Source of the DNA: Dictyostelium discoideum
Lineage: Eukaryota
Length of the DNA: 64,000 nucleotides
NCBI GenBank assembly: GCA_000004695.1
Contig: CM000153.2
Span: forward strand, 3,136,001-3,200,000
Direction: 5' to 3'
A program made the position numbers and the translations under genes. The notes beneath the pieces were generated by a model. The model was not told the DNA's origin. It searched no databases and saw nothing but the letters and a program-made list of their open reading frames with translations. Shown piece by piece: positions 7,311-42,374 of the stretch. Position 1 is the first letter of the stretch. Every line of letters starts with the position of its first letter.

Positions 7311-7837
7311 TTCGATCTTTATATATATTTAAATGTTTGGTTTTAATGAAAATTTCAAAAAATTAAAAAAAATAAAAAAAAATAAAAAAAAAAAAAAAAG
7401 AAAAACAAAAAAAAAAAATAAAAAAAAGTTTTATTTTTATGAAAATTATTCAATTGCACTGATCAGTTTAAAAGAGAGTTTTTGATCTACTTTAAATCTC
7501 AAGTTCCATTTTAACATTCAAGCCTAATATAGAAAAAAAAATATTAAAAAAAAATTAAAAAAGTTAAAAAAAATAAAAAAAAATAAAAAAAAATAAAAAT
7601 AAATAAAAATAAAATAAAAAATTTAAAAAAAATGATTGGAATTAAAAAAGTATTAATTTAATTAAACCAACACTTTTACAAAAAAATAAAAATAGATTTG
7701 AAAAAATAAATAAAATAAAAAAAATGAAAAAATGAAATAAAAAAAATAAAAAAAAAATGAAATAAAAATGAAATAATAAAGAAAGAAAAGTTTTTTTTTA
7801 ATTAATTATTTATTTATTTTAAGATTTATATTCTGTT

Positions 7838-27581: not shown

Positions 27582-28138
27582 ATTAATAATAAAATAATAT
27601 AAATAAAAAATTAAATAAAAAAATAAGGAATTAAAAAAGAAACAATAAAAAAAAGACACAATAAATAAAAAAAAAAAAAATATTCTAAAGCATTAAAAAA
27701 AAAAAAAATATAAAATATATCTTAATATTATTATTAATATTATTATATTATAATTATAATTAATTTTATTATTCAATTATAACAATATAATAAAAAAAGG
27801 TTATTGAAAATATTAATACTAAAGTGTAGAAAATATTATATATATCCTTTTAAAGTTTTATCATCAGAAATTACTATTTTTTTTAAAAAAAAAAAACAAA
27901 AACAAAACAAAAACGAATCGTACACACCCCCACCCCTATACTTAACCAAAAAAAAAAAAAAAAAAAAAAAAATAGAGGAAATATTTTTATAAACATTTTA
28001 TCAAATTAGTTTAAATTCACCACTTTTTATTTTACCCCTATTATTAAACCATTTTAAAATAATTAAATAACAATAATTATAATAAAATAAAAAAACAACC
28101 CCAAATTAATTTATTTTGTTTAAAACAAATAAAAAAAC

Positions 28139-28170
<32 letters not shown>

Positions 28171-28413
28171 TTAAATTTTTTAAACATTATTTTTTTATTA
28201 AAAAAATTTTATTTTTTTGTTTAAGTAAATAAAACTATCATTTAAATTATAATAATAAATAAAATTGTTATTTTAATTCTCTACATATTAAATAAAAAAT
28301 TAAACAAATAACCAATAATAGAAATTATTTATAAAATCTATATAATCATTTTAAATAAATATATTTATCGATAATACAATTATTTAAAAAAAAAAAAAAA
28401 TAATAAAAAAAAA

Positions 28414-29004
28414 ATGTCTTATAATATCACAACACCATTAAATAATAATATACAAAATTCATGTCCTTCATTAGGACATTTAATTGAAAATAATAATAAT
28501 AAAATTTTTGATAATAATAGTAATCAATGGAGATTCTCTTATCCATTAGATTTAAATAATAATAATTACAATAATAATAATAATAATAATAATTATAATA
28601 ATATTAAAAATAATAATAAAAATAATAAAATAAATAATTGGAAAAATGGTATAATTTCAAATAATGGATATCAATCAAAGAGTTGTCCAAATTTATTAAA
28701 TTCCTATTCAAAGAAACAACAAAACGAAGAAACAACAAATATTGACTTTAAAGAACTAAATGATATGTTTGAACCAAGACCTGTAAGATCAACAAAATTA
28801 GAAGAAATGGTAAAAGGAAGAATTAAAGAAAGATTAGGAAAATTATTAAATAACGAAATGATGCAAAAACAAGGTAAAGCCATTGGAAAAGGTGCTTCAA
28901 TTTATGAAAATAATATATCAAAATCAAAAGAAAGAGCTAGAAATATTTTATCATTACAACATCAATCCCAACCAAATTTAAGTTCAATTATAATCGTAAA
29001 TTAA
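28414..29004 (+). CDS. Hypothetical low-complexity protein, 196 aa, Asn-rich, with a conserved-looking C-terminal segment.
   Basis: The ORF has an ATG start and a complex C-terminal third (NIDFKELNDMFEPRPVRSTKLEEMVKGRIKERLGKLLNNEMMQKQGKAIGKGASIYENN). No family was recognised. A GTAAAT immediately at the stop leaves a possible downstream exon unresolved. Confidence 0.4.
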   Translation: MSYNITTPLNNNIQNSCPSLGHLIENNNNKIFDNNSNQWRFSYPLDLNNNNYNNNNNNNNYNNIKNNNKNNKINNWKNGIISNNGYQSKSCPNLLNSYSKKQQNEETTNIDFKELNDMFEPRPVRSTKLEEMVKGRIKERLGKLLNNEMMQKQGKAIGKGASIYENNISKSKERARNILSLQHQSQPNLSSIIIVN

Positions 29005-29007
29005 ATT

Positions 29008-29040
<33 letters not shown>

Positions 29041-29267
29041 TTAAAAAAATAAAAAAATTGTATAGATAATTAAATAATTAAATTTTATTATTGTTTTTTT
29101 TTTATTTTTTATTTTATCTTATTAATTAAAAAAAAAATGATAATAAAAATACTATATATATATAGAAGGTTATATTAAATAAATTAAAAATATTTTACTT
29201 TTTTTTTTTATTTTATTTTTTTTTTTATTTTTTTTTTATTTTAATTTTAATTTTGTTATTAATTAAT

Positions 29268-30362
29268 TTATTGAGCACATGATACTAATTCGACATCAAA
29301 GATTAAAGTAGCATTTGGTGGAATTGATGGTGGGGCACCAGATCTACCATAGGCTAAATCAGCTGGAATTGTTAATCTTCTCTTTCCACCAACTTTCATT
29401 GAGGCAACACCGATATCCCAACCCCTGATGACTTCTCTGATACCAATACGGAAAGTGAATGGAGTACGAAGGGAGGAATCAAAAGTTTTACCATTAGTAA
29501 GTTTACCAATGTATTTGACACCAACCTTTTTACCGCTCTTTGGTGATGGACCAGAACCAACGACTAAATCTTCATATTGTAAACCACTTGGTAATGTGAC
29601 AACTGATGAAGTTGGTTTCTTCTTTTCAACAACAGCAGCTTCAACTGGTTTAGTTGGAGTGACTGGTTTGGTTGGAGTGACTGGTTTAGCAGCTGGTTTA
29701 GCTGGTGTAGTTTGTTTAGTTGGAGTGGTGGTAGTGGTAGTGGTGGTGGTGGTAGTGGCAGCAGTTGGTTTAGCAGCTTGAGCAGTTGGTTTGACTGGAG
29801 TAACTTGTTTTACTGGCTCTTCTTGTTTTGGTTTTTTTTGTTGTTTATTTTTGTCGGCTTCAATTTGAGCTTTTCTCTTTAAAGCTTGTTCTAAAATTTG
29901 TCTTTCTAATTCTTTATTAATTTCATCATCTTCTTCATCGTCTTCTTCTTCTTCATCTTCATCTTCTTCATCTTCATCTTCTTCATCTTCATCTTCGTCT
30001 TCACCTTCCATTTCTTCATCTTCACCTTCTTCACCTTCTTCTTCTTCATTATCTTCATCTTCACCATGTTCATCATCACCAAACATTGAATCAACAAAAT
30101 AACCAGTTAAACAGATAGTGTTATTACCACTGACAGAGAATTCAACTTCTTTACCTTCTTCAAAATTGGTATCTAAAACACTGTGTTCAGTTGCATTTAA
30201 TTTTAATGAACAAAGACTGTATGTTTTGCCATCATATTTAACTTGTAATACATTACGACCAGTATCTTTGGCAACAGCTGATAAACATGCTGTTGTAATG
30301 TGAAGGTCAAAAGCTGGTGTAAATTTAACTGGAACTTTACTAATTTCAATACCCCAAAACAT
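29268..30362 (-). CDS. fkbp4: Nucleoplasmin-like FKBP-type peptidyl-prolyl cis-trans isomerase (Fpr3/Fpr4 / FKBP39 class), 364 aa.
   Basis: N-terminal nucleoplasmin-like beta domain ([33 protein letters not shown]...[18 protein letters not shown]). A long D/E acidic tract and a K/A/P/T basic linker follow. The C-terminal FKBP domain is [18 protein letters not shown]...[38 protein letters not shown]...[13 protein letters not shown]. Confidence 0.88.
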
Positions 30363-30702
30363 TTTTTTTAGATATATATATATATAAATTTGGTGTGGTG
30401 ATGTTTTCGGAAAAGAAAAAAAATTAAAAAGATAAAAAAAAAAAAAAAAAATTCATGAAAAAAAAAAAAAAAAAATATAAAAAAAAAAAAAATTAAATAA
30501 AATTAAAAACCGCGGGAAAATAAATAAAAAAAATTAAATTTAGAAAAAAAAAAAAAAAAAACGAAACCTTTCCAACCGAATTAAAACTATCATCTTTAAA
30601 TTTAAAAGGGTTTACCAATTTAATTTATTCAGTTTAATTTTGGGTTTGGTTTTTTTTTTTTTTTTTTTTTTCAAGTATTAGATAAAATATTTAAATAATA
30701 AA

Positions 30703-30736
<34 letters not shown>

Positions 30737-30878
30737 CATATATTTATCAGTAAAGATTTTATTTTATTTTGTTTTGTTTTATTTATTTTTATAGTTTACA
30801 AATATAATAATGATTTATTATTATTATTTTTTTTTTTTTTTCCAGTTTTTTTTTTTTTTTTAAACTCTCATAAGAGTC

Positions 30879-31823
30879 TTAGTGAATGACATGATATCCG
30901 AATTTACGAGTGTGTAAGATGGAAGAAGTCAAGAAAATAGTAATAAATGAGACAATTGCAGCTGCAAGTGAGCAATACCAACCCTAAATTTAATTAAAAA
31001 AAAAAAATATATATATGTTAGTGTTGGTGTTTTTTTTTTTTTAAAAAAAAAAAAAAAAACTATTAATACTTACGATGGATGGACCCCAAGAAAAGAGGGA
31101 ATCACTTCCTTTGAATTTACTACAGATACCAGAATCAAGAATACTTTTCTCCATTGAAAATGGTAATGAAAGACCATCAGTGGCATCTTCACAGAGTGCT
31201 TTGTTTAATCTTAATAATAATAAAGTTGAAAGTACATTGAAAATACATAACAAGATTGACATAACAAATAATGCCTTTCTACCTTTTTTATGAACACGTT
31301 TGAATAATGCAACTAATGTAATTAAAAGCATAATACAAGCCTGAAAATAGAAATTGGAATTTTTTTTTTTTTTTTTTTTTTTATTTTTTTTTTTAATTAT
31401 TATATTTTAAAAAGGGATTAATAATAAGTTAGTTTAATTTTTATATTTAAATTTATATTTTTAATTAAAATTTTAATGGTCCAATTGATTCAGATTTTTT
31501 TTTTTTTTTTTTTTTTTTGTCGGAGATATTTTTTATTTTTTTTATTTTTTTTATATTTAACTTACAAATGCAAAAGATACAACTACAAAGGCAAAACAAG
31601 TGTAAAGAGTATTTTCAGTTTTTGAGTTTGTATTCCAATCAATATTTTTACCTCCTTCTCCCATTAATCCACCTCTATTGATACCAAAAGTTATAGAGGA
31701 TGCTAAACTGAATGTGAATTGATACCAATTGGTATCTGGTAAGAATGAATAAACATTTAAACCAATGACTGCTCCTAAAAAGAGAATTGTAACGACTCCA
31801 ACAATTATATTATGTTTTGACAT
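30879..31823 (-). CDS. Small tetraspan (4-TM) membrane protein, about 209 aa. Three exons: 31566..31823 (ATG at 31823), about 31075..31341, and 30879..30983. Introns have GTAAGT donors with TTTTCAG / TTTAG acceptors.
   Basis: Exon 1 encodes MSKHNIIVGVVTILFLGAVIGLNVYSF...LYTCFAFVVVSFAF. Exon 2 encodes ACIMLLITLVALFKRVHKKGRKALFVMSILLCIFNVLSTLLLLRL...SWGPSI. Exon 3 encodes GWYCSLAAAIVSFITIFLTSSILHTRKFGYHVIH*. There are four hydrophobic helices; the topology is MARVEL/CASP-like, but the family assignment is tentative. The exon-2 lower boundary may be off by one. Confidence 0.6.
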
Positions 31824-32394
31824 TTTTATTTATCTCACCTGCGCGCTAATTATTTGTGTGTATCAGTGAAAATTTGTGTGTGAATAAAAATAATATATTG
31901 TGTTTAAAAAAAAAAAATCTTTTTTTAAATTTTTATTTTTATTTTTTTTTTTTGAAAATAAAAAAAAATTTATTTAAATTTATTTATTTATTTAATTATT
32001 TATTTAATTATAAATAATTTATTTATTATATGAATGTTGATTTATATAGGAAAAGAAAAAAAATTAAAAAAAAATGAAAATAAGAAAAGGTTTTTGAAAA
32101 AAAAAAAAAAAAAAAAAAAAATTAAAAAATTAAATAAAAATAATAAAATTGTTATGGTTTTTTTTTTTAGTCTTTTGGGTCTTAATAAAAAAAATTCAAA
32201 TAAAATTTTTTTTTTATATTTTAATTTTTTAAAAAAAGATATTTTTTGACAGATTTTTCTTTTCCATATTAATTTTTTTTATTTTTTATTTTAATTTTTT
32301 TTCGTACAATTTTTTAAAAATCCAATCAACATTGTTGGTGTTTAACTCAATTTTTCATTTTATTTTATTATTTATTATTTTTTTTATTGTTTTT

Positions 32395-32645
32395 TTATTT
32401 TTATTATTTTTTTTTTTTTTTTTTTTTTTAATTTATTAAAAATTGAAGTAATACAGAATTTTTAAGTTCTACCATATAATTGAGTACCATTATATTTCTT
32501 TAAGGCAGCCATTTCACCGTTTTGTCTTGAATAGATGACCTAACCAGTACCATCACTTCTACCACTATTGTCATAATGAATTTTAATTTGTTTAATTTAA
32601 ATAATTGTAAACTTTTTCAATGTGGTCCATTAAATTACAATATAT

Positions 32646-32650
<5 letters not shown>
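32395..32650 (-). pseudogene. Truncated, decayed duplicate of the 3' end of the Aly/REF gene at 33327..34469. It covers the second half of the RRM plus the poly-T/aatttattaaaaatt flank, has internal deletions, and carries an in-frame stop.
   Basis: Positions 32461..32600 are about 90% identical to 33371..33510. Both copies share the flanking ttttt...aatttattaaaaatt. The copy lacks about 110 nt that the gene has (33511..33600 and 33346..33365). On the minus strand it reads ..IHYDNSGRSDGTG-stop (TAT to TAG). Confidence 0.6.
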
Positions 32651-32676
<26 letters not shown>

Positions 32677-32774
32677 TTATTTTAAAATGTGATAAAAATT
32701 TATTGATTAATTTATTGAATTATCATTATTATTATTATTATTGTTTTTTTATTATTTGTGGGTCTTTATTATTA

Positions 32775-32812
<38 letters not shown>

Positions 32813-33294
32813 AACTAATATCCAACAATACTATATGGTTTGTGAAGTGGATATTTTTTTTTTTTTTTTTGTTATTTGGATTATTATTATTATTACTATT
32901 TGGTTAATACTTGAGTTATAAGTTTGGACAAAAATAAAAATAAAAAATAAAAAAAATAAAAAAAGAAATAATAAAAAAAAAAGAAAAGAACAATTATTAT
33001 TTTAAAAAAAAAATAAGATTGATAGTATTTTGTTATAAATTTGGTAAATGTAATAATTATTATTATCATTACAATGATTATAATAAATAAATATTTTTTA
33101 TTTTTAGGGAAATTTTTTTCGAAATTTAGCTTTCTTACCCCTCTCTTTCCACACCAAAATACACTGCATATACATAGTTTTAAAATACAATAAAATTTTT
33201 TTTTTTTTTTTTTAATTATTTGGAATAAATCCAAAAAAATAAAAAAACCAATTTTAAAAAGTTATTTACTTTCAAGTTTTCTCCAAATTTTTTA

Positions 33295-33326
<32 letters not shown>

Positions 33327-34469
33327 TTAAAAATTCTTTCTTACATCCTCTTGTAAAGATGGTCCAGTTGTAATTTTTAAAGTTCTACCATCTAATTGAG
33401 CACCATTGTATTTCTTTAAGGCAGCCATTGCATCATTGTGTCTTGAATAGATGACATAACCAGTACCATCACTTCTACCACTATGATCATAATGAATTTT
33501 AATTTGTTTAATTTCACCTAAAGAATCGAATAAAACCTTGAGATCAGCTTCACTAATAGCATGATGAAGGTTTGAAATATTTAATCTTGAACCTGTAAAT
33601 AATTGTAAACTTTTTCCTGTTGGTCCATTATAGCCACCACCACCACTATTACGTCTTTCAAATAGAGTTGGACCACTACCAGTTGAGTGATCACTATCAT
33701 ATGAATTACGACGAATATTAATTCTACTACCACCACTGCCACTACTACCATTATCAACACTATATCTACTACTAATACTTCTACCACCACTACTGATACG
33801 ACTATCAAAATTATTTCTACTTGATCTAATTATTGGTCTTGATAATGATGAATTTCTATCTACAGTTTTTGTAATTCTAATTCTTGGTAAATTATTATTA
33901 TCAAATCTTGATGGAGTATCTTGTCTTTCTCTTACCTCTTTTTTAGTTGTTGTTGTATTGTTTTGAATTGTAATCTTTAATGGTGGTGGTGCTGATGATG
34001 ATGATGATGATGATGATGTGGTAGTAGTGGTTGTGGTTGTATTATGAGATCTAACTGGTATCCTTCTTAATGGTTTTGTACTACCACTGCCACCACCACC
34101 ACTACTACCACCACCACCACCATTTATTGATGTTGTATCTAATCTAGCTGTAAATTTAACTGGTGATGACTCATTCTTTTTATTATTATTTTATTATTAT
34201 TATTATTTTGGTTATTTATTTATTTTTTTAAAAAAGTGATAAATAATTTATTGATTAATTGATTGACTTTTTTTTTTTTTTTATTATTATTATTTTATTT
34301 ATTTATTTTTTTTTTTTTTTTATGATTATTTTACCTTAAAATTATTTCTAATATTTATTCTTCTTTGAAAAGTTTTTGGGGAATCTGTATTATTAAATCT
34401 ACGGGCTCTACCACCACTTTGGCTTGATTTATTATTTTTTATATATTGATCAAGTGAAATATCCTCCAT
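33327..34469 (-). CDS. thoc4: Aly/REF RNA export factor (THO complex subunit 4), about 327 aa. Two exons: 34335..34469 (ATG at 34469) and 33327..34175. Intron 34176..34334 has donor GTAAAA and acceptor AAAAAG.
   Basis: The N-terminal UAP56-binding motif MEDISLDQYIKNNKSSQSGGRARRF matches Aly MSLDDIIKLNR..GGRG. A Gly/Arg/Ser low-complexity region follows. The RRM is LQLFTGSRLNISNLHHAISEADLKVLFDSLGEIKQIKIHYDHSGRSDGTGYVIYSRHNDAMAALKKYNGAQLDGRTLKI (Aly/REF ..[71 protein letters not shown]). Exon 2 contains no start codon in frame, so it is absent from the ORF track. The protein ends ..QEDVRKNF*; a possible GTAAGA donor before the stop and a further C-terminal exon cannot be excluded. Confidence 0.8.
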
Positions 34470-34603
34470 TTTTTATTTTATCTTATTTTTTTTTATTTTT
34501 GTTATATATATAAATATTAAATAAATAATGTATAGGAAAGAAATAAAAAGTTAATGAAAAATTCAAAGGTGAACAAAATTAATTGAAAATAAAATTAAAA
34601 AAA

Positions 34604-34636
<33 letters not shown>

Positions 34637-34835
34637 AAAATTGAAAATTGAAAAAAAAAAAAAAAAAAAAAAAAAATTAAAATTTAAAAATAACTTTTTT
34701 TTTTTATTTCTTCCCAAAAGGGAAGATCAAAACTTTGATTTGATTTTTTAAAATCTTTTTTTATTTTTATTTTTATTCTTTATTTGTATTTTATTTTTAG
34801 TTTTATTTATTTTTTTTTTTTTTTTTTTTTTTTTT

Positions 34836-35882
34836 CTATTCTTCCATTTCCTTATCTTCCATTTCTTCAGAGGTTGTTGTTGTTGGGTTTGTTTCGACAT
34901 TTGATTCTTCAGTTGTAGCGGTAGTAGTGGTAGAGGTAGTAGAAGTGGTAGTAGTAGTTGTAGTTGGTGGTGAAGTTTGTTTTGGTGGATTTTCAGCTTC
35001 ATATAAGATTAAGAGTGAACCATCAAGTTCTACACCACTATATCTTTCAATTGAAGCCAAAGCATGAGTTTTCTTTTTAAATATAACGGTAGCAGTTGAA
35101 TTGTTTGTATCCAATTCAAAATCTTTTAAGGAACCAATAACACCAAACATATAAGCAATATCGGAAGGTATAATACTTTTTGGTAAATTTACAACCTTTA
35201 CACTAAAACTGAGTTCATTACCTTTTTCATCATATTCCAATTCATCGGCATCATCAGCATTATTGCTATTATTGTTACCATTGGTGGTATTATCTTTAGT
35301 ATTATCGTTCATTGATGCAGTTGTAGGCTTTTTCACTTGACTATAGTCTCTAATACCTCTTGGATCGAAAAATTTATGATCTATACTATCTGTAATCGAT
35401 GTTCTTGGTATATTCTTTAATCTACTATTGTTATGATATTGTGGGTACTTTTTAATATAATTTGGTGATACATTGTTTTTATTAAATCTATTATTACTAT
35501 TTACAAATTGTTGTTGTTGTTGTGGTTGATTTCTATTAAATAACCCTCTATTTTGGAATTGTGGGCTACCATGTGGTTGATTATATTTATTATTATTGTA
35601 GTTGTTGTTGTTATTGATTGTAACTTTAAATTGTTGATGTTGGTGTTGTTGATTTTGTGATTTTTTAATATATGGTTTCTTTTGTGACTTAACAATATCA
35701 TCGAGTGATGTCTCTAATACATTTAATTTTGGTGAGGTAGATGATTCTTTGGTTGTTGTAGTTGGTTTATCACCCCCTTTATTGAATGATCCTCTTCCCT
35801 TTTTTGCTGCCCTATTTGCTTTAACTATATCATCCAAACTAACAGACATATACTGATTTTTAATTTGTTCAGAGTCTTGCAT
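34836..35882 (-). CDS. Second Aly/REF-family protein, 348 aa, with two N-terminal UAP56-binding-type motifs and a C-terminal RRM-like domain. It lies in tandem immediately upstream of the Aly/REF gene.
   Basis: MSVSLDDIVKANRAAKKGRG and LETSLDDIVKSQKK are both Aly/UIF-type UBMs. Asn/Gln low-complexity sequence follows. The C-terminal segment LSFSVKVVNLPKSIIPSDIAYMFGVIGSLKDFELDTNNSTATVIFKKKTHALASIERYSGVELDGSLLILYEA is RRM-like, with a YNGV.LDG-type ending. An acidic T-rich tail follows. Confidence 0.7.
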   Translation of the reverse strand: MQDSEQIKNQYMSVSLDDIVKANRAAKKGRGSFNKGGDKPTTTTKESSTSPKLNVLETSLDDIVKSQKKPYIKKSQNQQHQHQQFKVTINNNNNYNNNKYNQPHGSPQFQNRGLFNRNQPQQQQQFVNSNNRFNKNNVSPNYIKKYPQYHNNSRLKNIPRTSITDSIDHKFFDPRGIRDYSQVKKPTTASMNDNTKDNTTNGNNNSNNADDADELEYDEKGNELSFSVKVVNLPKSIIPSDIAYMFGVIGSLKDFELDTNNSTATVIFKKKTHALASIERYSGVELDGSLLILYEAENPPKQTSPPTTTTTTTSTTSTTTTATTEESNVETNPTTTTSEEMEDKEMEE

Positions 35883-37379
35883 TATTTAATATTATAAATA
35901 TATAAAAAAAAATTAAAAAATTATAAAAAAAAAAAATGAAAAAAAAAAAAAATGAAAAAAAAGTTAATTTGAAAAAATTTAAAAAAAAAAAAAAAAATAA
36001 AAATAAAAATAAAAAACAAAAAAAAAGATTTGGAAATTCATTTAAATGGATTAATTTTAACTATATATTATTATTATTATTTTTTTTTTTTTATTTTTTT
36101 TATTTTTTTTTATTTTTTTTTATTCTTTTTTATTCTTTTTTTTAAAAAAAAATTGTTGTATAATAGATTTTATATATAATCATTCAATTTTTCCATTTAT
36201 ATATAATCTTTAATAATAGATTATATATAAAAGGATAATAATTTATCTTTTTTAATTTTTTTATTTGGAACAAGTGATTTTTTTTCAATGTTTGTTTTTT
36301 TTAATCATTTTTTTTTTTAGCCATCTTTTTTTTTAGTTTTATTTTTTTTTTTTTGGAATAAGCGATTTTTTTTTTTTTCCCGATTGATGAGTTGTAATTA
36401 AAGTATGAAAATAAATTTCTTTTTTGCTTTTTATTTTTTTTTATTTTTTTTTTTTATTTTTTTTTTTTTTTTGAAAAATGTGGTAAATAAAATTTCAATG
36501 TGACAAATAAAATTTTTCGATTTCTTTTGACACCATTAATCGTTATGGCTTTGGAATCATTTGCACCACGTTGGAATTTTTTTTTTTTTTTTTTTTTTTA
36601 TTTTTTTTTTTTTTTTAAATTTTTTTTTACCAGTAGAACAAGTCGTTAAATTTTTTTTTTTTTTTTTAATTCATAAAAAAAAAATTAAAAAAAATAAAAA
36701 AAAAAATAAAAAAAAAAAAACAAATCTACACTGGGTTAAATCATTTTTTTTTTATTATTTTCTTTTTTTTTTTTTGTTTTTTTTCTATTTAATTAACCTC
36801 TATTTCAATAAACACCTTTATATTTACCCCCTTTTCTATTTATCTATTTATTTACTTTTTTTTTTTTGTTTTTTTTATCATCATCACCATCATTGTTTTT
36901 TTTATTTATAATTTTGTAATTTTTTAAATTTTAAATTTTTTTTTTTTTTTTCGTGTGTGATATAAACCTTTTTTTTTAATTTTTTTTCATTCATTTTTTT
37001 TTTACATATAAATATAAATAAATAATAATAATAATACACATTACACATTTATTTTAATAAAAGAAAAATAATAAATAAATAAATAAATAAATAAAAAATT
37101 TTTTTAAAAAAAAATTAAATAAAAATTAAATTTGTAATATTAAAAAAAAAAAAAAAAAAATCGAAAAATAATAAGGAAGTAATACCATTTTATTTGAAAA
37201 AAAAAAAAAAAAAAAATCAAATCAAATCAAATCAAATCTTCCATTACTATTATTGGTATCATTACTCTAGTGGGTTTAAATAATTAAATAAATAATCAAT
37301 CTACCAAACAAACAAATAAACAAATAAAATCTAAAAAAAAAAAAAAACCAAATTATACATATATATATATATATCCATC

Positions 37380-38146
37380 ATGGCCGATTTACAAGAAAAT
37401 GAAATGGATTTTGAAAAAATCGTTAGGGAGGTAGAAATTGGTATTAAAGATTTAAGTAAAAATAAAAGAGGTATAGAAGCAAGAGGTGTAAGTATTTTTT
37501 TTTTTTTTTTTTTTTTCTAATTTTTTTATTAATAAATTAATTTTTTTTTTTTTAGGGAGCAGAATTATTAAGAAATAGAATAGGAAGAGCAAAACAAATT
37601 TTAAGATCATATAAATTAGATTTTAGAGAATTAGCTAAAAATGAACAAAAACCCTATCAAGATAAAGCAAATCAATATGAAGAACAAATAAAAACATTAG
37701 AGAATGATTTAAATTGGGCAGAAAAGAATAGTGAAAATGGTGGTGGAGGTGGTGGTAGTGGTGGTAATAATAGTCAATCAATAGATACAGAATATCAAGA
37801 AACAATGCAAAAAGCAAAGAAAATTCAACAACAAGATATAGATACAACACATAGAATTTTATCAGAAGTTGGTCAAATTAATGAAGTTGGTACATCCACT
37901 TTAGAGGAGATGGCAGTTCAAGAGGAACAAATGAAAAGAATTCAAAAAGATATGGAAGAAATTGATGGTAACTTAAAATTAGCAACTAGACAAATGAGAG
38001 CATTCGCTAGAAAAATGGCAACTGATAAACTTATTATGGGTCTTGTACTATTAATTGTTGCTGCTATCATTTTTGTAATCGTTTATTCAATCGTTAAACC
38101 TAAATCTAAAACTGTTCAACAAAATGTTACTGGTTCAACCCAATAA
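37380..38146 (+). CDS. NPSN-type Qb-SNARE (novel plant SNARE family), 232 aa. Two exons: 37380..37487 and 37556..38146; intron 37488..37555 (GTAAGT...TTTAG).
   Basis: The SNARE motif plus TM anchor is AKKIQQQDIDTTHRILSEVGQINEVGTSTLEEMAVQEEQMKRIQKDMEEIDGNLKLATRQMRAFARKMATDKLIMGLVLLIVAAIIFVIVYSIVKP. This is collinear with Arabidopsis NPSN11 (GKKIVQETINVGTDTSAALKAQTDQMSRVVNELDSIHFSLKKASKLVKEIGRQVATDKCIMAFLFLIVIGVIAIIIVKIVNP). The N-terminal coiled coil MADLQENEMDFEKIVREVEIGIKDLSK resembles the NPSN N-terminus. Confidence 0.85.
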
Positions 38147-38563
38147 TAAAATTTTGAATTTTTAAAATAGTAAAAAAAATAAAATAAAATAAAAAAAAAA
38201 AAAATAAAAAAAATACCAATATTGTATTGTATTTGATTATCACTTTATCTTTTTCTTTTTATTTTTAATTTTAATTTATTAAAAAATATAAAAATAGATT
38301 AGGGAAAAAAAAAAAAAAAAAAATGCTGACATTGCACACCCTTTTTTTTTTTTTTTTTCTGTGAATTAATATGCCAAATTTCGATTTCTTGGATTTTTGT
38401 ATTTAAGAAAATGGTTTTTTTTTTTTTTTTTTATTTTTTTTTTTAATTCTTAATTGTATTTAATTACCTTGATATAAATAAATAAAATAAAAAAAAACAA
38501 AACAAAACAAAATTTTATAAATATTTAATACATATATTAAAAAAAAAAAAATAATAAATTTTA

Positions 38564-38738
38564 ATGGCCGATATTATAGAAAATGAAATTGAACTTGATA
38601 AAATAATTAAAGAAGTAGAAAAAAATATTAAAGATTTAAGAAAAAATAAAAAAGATATTGAATCTAGAGGGGTAAGTAATAAGAATAAATTTATTTTTAA
38701 ATAAATTTTTTTTACTAATCAATTTTTTTAAATAAATA

Positions 38739-38773
<35 letters not shown>

Positions 38774-38989
38774 TCCCAAAGGGAGTTGATCTTATAAAAA
38801 ATAAAAAAATTGGGCCAAAACAATTTTTAAAATCTTCCAAAATAATTTAAAAAAATTTCCCAAAACTGAATTGGCAAAGTTTGATTGTAAAGGTTATGGT
38901 TTTTAAAAACCAATTAAAAAATTTAAAAATGGTTTTAATTGGGTTGAAAATATTATGGGTAAAAATGAAAGGGGGAGTAGGGGTACTAG

Positions 38990-39020
<31 letters not shown>

Positions 39021-39377
39021 AAGGGGGGTAATAATAATAATAATAATGGAAATTTTAAAAATGGATATTCCATTTTCAAATGTAATGGAAAAAGCGAAAG
39101 ATAAGAACCAGATTAAAAAATTTCCAATGGAATATTACAAACTGTTATTGAAACTAATAATATTGGTACGACAACATTGGCAGAAATGAATATTCAAGAA
39201 GAACCAATTTATAGAATAAAAAATGATATGGATTTAATTGATAGTAATTTAAAATTAGCCCCAAGACAAATGAGATCCATTGCAAGGAAAATGGCAACTG
39301 ATAAAATTATTTTAGGTTTAATATTATTAATTATTGCTGGGAAAAATGTTGTAATTGTTTATAAAACTTTTAAATAA
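38564..39377 (+). pseudogene. Decayed tandem paralog of the NPSN SNARE gene. Exon 1 (38564..38671) and its GTAAGT intron are intact. The middle of exon 2 has several frameshifts and stops. The SNARE C-terminal half plus TM is still open in one frame (39120..39377).
   Basis: MADIIENEIELDKIIKEVEKNIKDLRKNKKDIESRG is collinear with gene 1 exon 1 and has the same 108-nt length. After the CCAAAG acceptor the reading frame hits TAA within 25 codons; G/C homopolymer indels are visible (gggccaaaac, agggggag, aagggggg, ccccaag). The 3' part reads ETNNIGTTTLAEMNIQEEPIYRIKNDMDLIDSNLKLAPRQMRSIARKMATDKIILGLILLIIAGKNVVIVYKTFK*, homologous to gene 1 (EVGTSTLEEMAVQEEQMKRIQKDMEEIDGNLKLATRQMRAFARKMATDKLIMGLVLLIVAA). 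Confidence 0.65.
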
Positions 39378-39430
39378 ATAAAATTTAAAGTAATCAATCC
39401 AAAGATGATAATAATAATATCCCCCCCTTT

Positions 39431-39470
<40 letters not shown>

Positions 39471-39504
39471 TATTATTTTAATTATTGGATAAATGTAATA
39501 AACA

Positions 39505-42374
<2,870 letters not shown>

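Follow-up and report, generated by a model that had tools for sequence, protein, structure and literature searches.

A window of 64,000 nucleotides from chromosome 4 of Dictyostelium discoideum AX4 (CM000153.2, positions 3,136,001 to 3,200,000; ~20-25% G+C) contains two neighbouring genes, DDB_G0285363 (gene B) and DDB_G0285361 (gene A, RNP1B), together with a broken partial copy of the latter, here called copy C. The locus is a case of ordinary gene duplication and decay, an ancient Aly/REF-like pair plus a non-coding remnant, and two duplication layers of very different age are probably present in it: the old B-A pair and the later, decayed C. An earlier note, made from the window sequence alone, had listed three Aly/REF-related segments; all three were present, on the minus strand, as is every feature discussed below unless a plus is given. 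Its wording of a 'recent local duplication' holds for copy C only, the B-A pair being ancient and conserved to Heterostelium album. The AX4 annotation already included genes A and B. In the searchable literature neither their Aly/REF-like assignment nor the pseudogene fragment appears to have been reported, and a search there for Dictyostelium THOC4 or Aly/REF found nothing specific.

Gene A (UniProt Q54NB4; 34469..33327) has one intron and a product of 327 aa that is 100% identical to AX4 protein P0001. A spliced cDNA of the gene was available as Logan contig SRR24091728_4786 (L011), which bears an Illumina adapter at its start and corresponds to window positions 34527..34335 joined to 34178..33301 (L011 positions 20-212 equal window 34527-34335). 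This contig confirmed the intron, gave a 5' untranslated region of at least 58 nt, and was collinear with the genome through TAA TAA, with the transcript ending in an A-run directly after the stop codon. The protein ends 12-15 residues past its RNA recognition motif (RRM), and its C-terminal residues, ...GPSLQEDVRKNF, are conserved across dictyostelids as far as P. violaceum. Gene A is without a further 3' exon; the suggestion that such an exon might carry a C-terminal UAP56-binding motif (UBM) is contradicted by the end of L011 and by the conserved C-terminus.

The RRM that had been noticed in protein A was matched by Pfam RRM_1 at 56.4 bits (E 2.7e-15). A profile restricted to A orthologues from dictyostelids scored ALYREF at 97.9 bits, against ~55 bits for the next single RRM; PABP topped the ranking of this profile solely through the summing of four RRMs. 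At the N-terminus the proposed UBM was indeed present (MEDISLDQYIKNN), with the core SLDQ and not the published SLDD/E. In the A-family alignment S5, L6, Q8 and I10 of this motif are invariant. Its position is fixed in all orthologues, and the core reads SLEQ in those of D. purpureum and P. violaceum. The region described as 'GR-rich' is of low complexity and rich in G, S, R, N and T, as far as that description goes, with no RG dipeptide in the AX4 protein and no RGG box.

Protein B had been called a divergent paralog with two UBM-like motifs and an RRM-like C-terminus; SLDD occurs in it twice, at aa 15 and 59, and an RRM lies at aa 222-298. The profile check proposed for it gave a divided answer. 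Pfam RRM_1 reached 18.0 bits, under the 20.7 cut-off, but the B-family profile matched REF2/ALYREF at ~3e-11 (PDB entries of REF2/ALYREF 2.9e-11 to 1e-10, next RRM 3.4e-4), and the PDB sequence matches of B were ALYREF/REF2 only. AlphaFold2, run with the family alignment, returned a confident domain of RRM topology at aa 222-298 and short helices over both SLDD motifs, the remainder being disordered. Foldseek matched this domain to RRMs, with ALYREF (3ulh, 7znj) among the top matches and highest in sequence identity (26-30%).

In the first UBM of B, residues S15, L16 and D17 are invariant in the family and a helix is predicted at aa 16-28; the B-family profile aligns MSVSLDDIVK.NR with the ALYREF N-UBM, MDMSLDDIIKLNR. 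In the second, L56, E57, S59, L60, D61, I63, V64, K65 and S66 are invariant, with a predicted helix at aa 60-65. The canonical SLDD cores belong to B, not A. Between the second UBM and the RRM, IDHxxFDPRGIRDY is invariant across the B family, including Heterostelium and Acytostelium, and DHxxFD was found in 14/14 members examined. This motif sits where ALYREF has WQHDLFD and, by an equivalence drawn by eye, may be a diverged eIF4A3/cap-binding complex (CBC)-binding motif of the WxHD type. Protein B has three RG dipeptides, and its RRM is followed by a T-rich acidic tail of ~50 aa that ends in EMEE.

When the B profile was run against 1.8 billion representative proteins, the first matches were those of D. 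purpureum, P0022, T. lacteum, H. album and Acytostelium subglobosum (two copies), followed by proteins of 200-300 aa, several of which, when checked, were plant THO complex subunit 4 with RRM_1 and FoP_duplication. These plant proteins were the best matches outside Dictyostelia among those checked. The two A. subglobosum proteins, P0027 and P0029 (391 aa), each carry two SLD motifs and the DHSLFDPRGIRDY motif. Since both have the B-family motifs, the B family is duplicated again in the A. subglobosum lineage.

The short motifs published for the Aly/REF family are SLDD/E (N-type UBM), LDxxLD (C-type UBM) and WxHD (PMC4797287). A single RRM of the Aly/REF subtype was found in both A and B by profile comparison, and for B also by AlphaFold2 and Foldseek; the N-terminal UBM with an SLDD/E core was found in B and, in approximate form (SLDQ/SLEQ), in A. 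The view that both proteins are Aly/REF-related was borne out by this ALYREF-specific RRM and the N-terminal UBM-like motif. Like ALYREF, THOC4, REF2 and Yra1, they have one ALYREF-like RRM, an N-terminal SLD-type UBM and disordered flanks. In contrast to these, A and B are 30-40% longer than a typical Aly/REF protein and have no C-terminal UBM, WxHD or RGG boxes; B further differs by its two N-UBMs, by IDHxxFDPRGIRDY and by the acidic T-rich tail ending in EMEE. SLDD/E-type UBMs also occur in UIF (FYTTD1), SKAR/POLDIP3 and LUZP4, and SKAR, like B, has an RRM too (PMC4797287). The RRMs of A and B matched ALYREF, with no POLDIP3 or other family among the PDB sequence matches; the sequences were not compared directly with POLDIP3 or UIF. 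On this sequence evidence A and B are to be regarded as divergent Aly/REF-like proteins and not as canonical members. The label 'canonical' that had been given to A does not hold, as it lacks a C-terminal UBM/FoP_duplication, WxHD and RGG boxes and has SLDQ as its UBM core.

Several observations weigh against a role of A and B as Aly/REF-type adaptors. No PF13865 (FoP_duplication) match at E <= 1, as expected of a C-terminal UBM, was obtained in A or B, and LDxxLD occurs in no member of either family. W.HD was likewise found in no A- or B-family member. RGG boxes do not flank the RRM of A or B, where S/T/N/G/R-rich low complexity is found instead and RG dipeptides are all but missing. The SLDQ core of A is off the SLDD/E consensus, and the sole published interaction found for A, reported under the name RNP1B from a proteomic screen, is with cortexillin I, which is cytoplasmic (PMC12863306).

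Both families share, besides the RRM, a short motif. In hhalign the A and B families matched with 96.9% probability, over the RRM only. The pattern K-[IV]-T-[IVLF]-x-[NGD] was present in 7/7 A-family and 9/10 B-family members, versus 13/143 other RRM matches. It occurs singly, between the UBM and the RRM, and is disordered in the AlphaFold2 model.

The order B then A on the same strand was found in all D. discoideum-complex genomes examined and in D. citrinum, D. firmibasis and D. dimigraforme. The same arrangement was present in D. purpureum and P. violaceum, and in H. album, with an RRM of the A type encoded by the downstream gene; it was not found in T. lacteum. Because the same-strand B-A order recurs in D. 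purpureum, P. violaceum and H. album, the A/B duplication, if it was a duplication, is evidently ancient. The first layer would be an old same-strand tandem of dictyostelid-specific, divergent Aly/REF-like proteins, and in each member of the pair an ALYREF-type RRM would be joined to N-type UBMs (one with SLDQ in A, two with SLDD in B) and to the K-[IV]-T-[IVLF]-x-[NGD] motif.

Human ALYREF forms a two-interface clamp on UAP56, with the N-UBM on RecA2 and the C-UBM on RecA1. Engagement of UAP56 by ALYREF through both UBMs has been described (PMC12823420). By analogy with what is known of the family, A and B are most likely UAP56-binding export adaptors. They would serve as nuclear messenger ribonucleoprotein (mRNP) adaptors, with the N-UBM helices recruiting the DEAD-box ATPase UAP56/Sub2 and the RRM docking on mRNP marks. 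As the C-terminal UBM is absent from both, they would contact UAP56 via one of the two interfaces used by ALYREF; B, with two N-type UBMs, may be bivalent. Tentatively, it is possible that transcription-export (TREX)-type export in dictyostelids relies on two lineage-specific, paired Aly/REF derivatives with N-type UBMs only. If so, the two-interface clamp would be replaced in these organisms by a different, possibly bivalent, engagement, and the cortexillin-interacting RNP1B would in fact be an export adaptor.

The cortexillin result allows another reading, in which A (RNP1B) would be an RNA-binding protein of the cytoplasm that works with the cortexillin/IQGAP 'contractility kit', B perhaps likewise, and the likeness to Aly/REF would be a matter of ancestry only. 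Recovery of A with cortexillin I speaks for this, as do the absences of the C-UBM, WxHD and RGG boxes from both proteins. However, the N-UBM-like motifs stay invariant in the dictyostelid orthologues despite strong divergence in the rest of these proteins, which argues for a conserved UAP56-type partner, and the RRMs are still specifically ALYREF-like. Little weight attaches to the co-purification of an RNA-binding protein that is abundant, and A is also among the proteins tabulated in a study of the nucleocytoplasmic O-fucose proteome (PMC11507795). We consider a mainly cytoplasmic, non-export role unlikely. RNP1A (DDB_G0284167), which was found with cortexillin I as well and called a 'related RNA-binding protein' to RNP1B (PMC12863306), has two canonical RRMs, in contrast to the one ALYREF-type RRM and UBM-like N-terminus of A; judged by the description of RNP1A, the relation is probably at the level of the RRM superfamily only.

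With the Aly/REF-like reading, DDB_G0285363, so far annotated 'hypothetical', has a family assignment, and DDB_G0285361, so far known just as the RRM protein of cortexillin proteomics, becomes Aly/REF-like as well; for both, UAP56 is the predicted partner. The pair indicates that the Aly/REF architecture can drop the C-terminal UBM and the RGG boxes and keep the N-UBM and RRM for a very long time, which bears on the current two-UBM models of how TREX assembles.

Copy C was compared with gene A by the alignment that the earlier note had proposed (32395..32650 against 33320..33640), and significant identity was obtained and the indels were quantified. The core of C (32598..32470) aligned without gaps to A 33514..33386 with 119/129 positions identical (92%). 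Upstream of it, 32632..32598 matched A 33630..33596 with 33 identities in 36 columns (1 mismatch, 2 gaps), and the stop codon with its flank (32444..32398) matched A 33335..33289 at 46 of 47 positions. Three stretches of A are missing from the copy, of ~556 nt (A 34186..33631), of 81 nt (A 33595..33515) and of a single nucleotide, and 12 nt stand in place of a further 36. A TAT has become TAG, in frame, at window 32542..32540. The distance from the gene A stop codon to C is 677 bp. The description of C as a ~90% identical copy with 3' flank, deletions and a TAT-to-TAG stop, lying ~700 bp downstream, is well matched by these values.

A piece of the gene A intron was also found in C, immediately upstream of the span given in the earlier note, which had not seen it; C is thus larger than described there. 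Positions 32718..32670 matched the intron at 34266..34216 with 46/51 identical positions (64 bits), and the next-best match in the 64-kb window scored 32.7 bits. When the piece was searched against six other Dictyostelium genomes, the best match was the orthologous intron in 6/6. The order in C is intron fragment, ~556-nt gap, two exon-2 blocks, then stop codon and 3' flank, collinear with A. Because C holds both intron sequence and 3' flank of A, there is strong sequence evidence that it arose by duplication at the DNA level, as had been proposed from the flank.

The ten substitutions in the core comprise three synonymous, six non-synonymous and one nonsense change, a pattern that agrees with the expectation without selection. 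No open reading frame (ORF) of at least 40 aa was found in 32250..32702 in six frames, and stops occur in all three sense frames. Copy C is best described as a decayed, non-coding partial copy of A, that is, a non-processed (duplicative) pseudogene fragment. Like other such fragments, it lies in tandem with its parent, keeps intron and flank, and shows a stop, indels and neutral-looking changes. Nothing about it is unusual among them except its structural polymorphism among D. discoideum-complex genomes. A third copy of the A 3' end in the spacer between A and C (GGGGTAAGAAAG, seen by eye) was rejected, as the A-run alone aligned.

The history of C was followed by comparing AX4 with seven related genomes. 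Among these were two further D. discoideum assemblies (L001 and L002) and two D. cf. discoideum assemblies (L003 and L004, the latter GCA_054859205.1, JBTAPH010000035.1). The copy of the RRM core was found in AX4 only. L001, L002 and L004 have a second copy of the last ~110-150 bp of A with its flank, directly before the conserved stretch leading into the next gene, and inserts of ~3.1 kb (L001), ~1.4 kb (L002) and ~1.4 kb (L004) lie between gene A and this repeated 3' end. L001 and L002 share with AX4 the 1-nt deletion (AGAACTT-AAAAATT) and the rearranged segment that follows it, which indicates that the remnants in these three genomes are the same copy; the RRM-core part has been lost from L001 and L002. 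L004 keeps the 36 nt that AX4, L001 and L002 have lost. No duplicate was present in L003, D. citrinum, D. firmibasis or D. dimigraforme, in which the intergenic region is short or different.

The core of C is identical at 118-120 of 129 positions to the A genes of all complex members (AX4 119/129, L003 120/129), at 114/129 to A of D. citrinum and at 105/129 to A of D. firmibasis. Four of the ten differences between C and AX4 A are states found in A orthologues of other lineages. These shared states, and the remnants with the 1-nt deletion in two other D. discoideum genomes, indicate that C is not very recent. We conclude that the duplication postdates the split from D. citrinum and belongs to the early history of the D. 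discoideum complex or to the time shortly before the complex radiated. The lack of the copy in L003 reflects either an earlier branching of that lineage or a loss through recombination between the repeats. The second layer would be a tandem DNA-level duplication, within the complex, of a segment reaching at least from the A intron to ~100-160 bp beyond the stop codon. Copy C, with no recognisable exon 1 or promoter, would have decayed neutrally through a nonsense change, mostly non-synonymous changes and deletions, and the strains would differ in which of its parts were lost and which inserts were gained, with AX4 keeping the largest remnant.

Some results fit this account poorly. The 0.5-kb spacer has no repeat elsewhere in the window except (AAT)n. 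The search for exon 1 or the 5' flank of A upstream of C scored 39, within the range of shuffled sequences (mean 31.7, maximum 47). The L004 insert has no relation to those of AX4, L001 and L002, and a single, simple tandem duplication may not account for all the repeats.

The inserts themselves differ in kind. Within that of L004 (L004:7150-8560) lie a ~200-bp palindrome at 7432-7630 and a multi-exon ORF whose zinc-loop domain is of the His-Me (I-PpoI-like) homing-endonuclease type (PF05551, 35.8 bits, cut-off 27), and public annotation wrongly fuses this ORF to gene A as the 491-aa P0004. Remnants of a His-Me endonuclease were found in none of AX4, L001-L003, L005 and L006. The inserts of L001 (7183-10326) and L002 (7191-8614) are partly shared, with internal tandem repeats (L001 7769-8328). 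An ORF of L001 (9912-10244) that by eye looked like the C-terminus of a hAT transposase received no support from Pfam.

A different origin for the repeat would be as a by-product of the insertion of foreign or mobile DNA into the 3' region of A, for example as a long duplication from double-strand-break repair, with the AX4 copy lengthened later by gene conversion from A. The direct repeat that brackets inserts of differing content in L001, L002 and L004 covers just the end of A, and the domain and palindrome of the L004 insert would suit a mobile element. The AX4 copy, however, consists of non-contiguous pieces from ~1 kb of the parent in parental order and orientation, and such an ordered mosaic fits deletional decay of a longer duplicate better than insertion. 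The core of C is no closer to A of AX4 than to A of L003, and this equidistance argues against recent gene conversion; nor was an endonuclease trace present in AX4, L001 or L002. An origin by insertion is accordingly rated as quite improbable, somewhat below the cytoplasmic reading of A and B.

It is far less probable that C is functional, whether by contributing an exon to some other gene or by acting on A, through the 92% identity, in the form of a regulatory or non-coding RNA. The 129-nt core is still ungapped, but stops interrupt all sense frames, the substitutions include as many as six non-synonymous and one nonsense among ten, and the RRM-core part is lost in L001 and L002. In none of the related genomes does the annotation place a gene between A and its downstream neighbour, the Rfam scan of 28000..40000 gave no match at C or elsewhere, and a homology search with A returned no protein containing the C translation. 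The chance that C is a processed (retroposed) pseudogene is negligible: the A-run after its stop codon is no sign of retroposition, since the same run is genome-encoded after the parent, the intron fragment excludes such an origin, and C lies close downstream of A on the same strand.

Duplicative decay, as preferred here, makes fragment C of minor interest in its own right, as a clean and datable example and as a marker of structural instability in this intergenic region within the D. discoideum complex.

Table 1. Coordinates in the window of genes B and A, their motifs, copy C and the spacer.
Feature	Position	Strand	Basis or remark
Gene B (DDB_G0285363), single-exon coding sequence, 348 aa	34836..35882	-	ORF list; 100% identical to P0014
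B UBM1, VSLDDIVK, aa 14-21	35820..35843	-	aligns with ALYREF N-UBM
B UBM2, TSLDDIVKS, aa 58-66	35685..35711	-	invariant residues in B family
K-[IV]-T-[IVLF]-x-[NGD] motif in B, FKVTINNN, aa 85-92	35607..35630	-	pattern match
B invariant motif IDHKFFDPRGIRDY, aa 167-180	35343..35384	-	invariant columns I167-Y180
B RRM, aa 224-298	34989..35213	-	predicted local distance difference test (pLDDT) 90-94, beta-alpha-beta-beta-alpha-beta
Gene A exon 1	34335..34469	-	includes UBM-like DISLDQYIKN, aa 3-12, 34434..34463
Gene A intron, GT..AG	34176..34334	-	missing from spliced cDNA contig L011
K-[IV]-T-[IVLF]-x-[NGD] motif in A, LKITIQNN, aa 111-118	34122..34145	-	pattern match
Gene A exon 2 including stop codon	33327..34175	-	Aly/REF-type RRM at 33366..33590, aa 241-315
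Spacer from A 3' flank to C, AT-rich, no ORF	32781..33288	-	~84% identical to L002 and L001 inserts only
Copy C, intron-derived fragment, convincing core 32670..32718	32643..32780	-	local alignment 122 versus shuffle maximum 88
Copy C, two exon-2 blocks (32632..32598, 32598..32470), TAG 32540..32542	32470..32632	-	local alignments
Copy C, RRM end with 1-nt deletion, 12-for-36 nt, TAA TAA and A-run flank	32350..32469	-	runs into ancestral intergenic DNA

Beyond gene B, at window ~37380..39200 on the plus strand, lie two tandem paralogous genes whose products start MADLQENEMDFEKIVREVE... and MADIIENEIELDKIIKEVE..., a second conserved tandem pair adjoining the B/A pair. In related Dictyostelium loci two genes are likewise found upstream of B, at least one of the two being called PF05008 V-SNARE in each. 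On the other side of the locus, a ~209-aa gene (ORFs at 31041..31823) for a small protein with hydrophobic segments is situated between copy C and an FKBP-type gene. The latter is a 364-aa ORF (29268..30362, minus strand) with an acidic middle and an FKBP-type C-terminus, and its orthologues in L004, L006 and L012 were called NPL (nucleoplasmin-like) plus FKBP_C.

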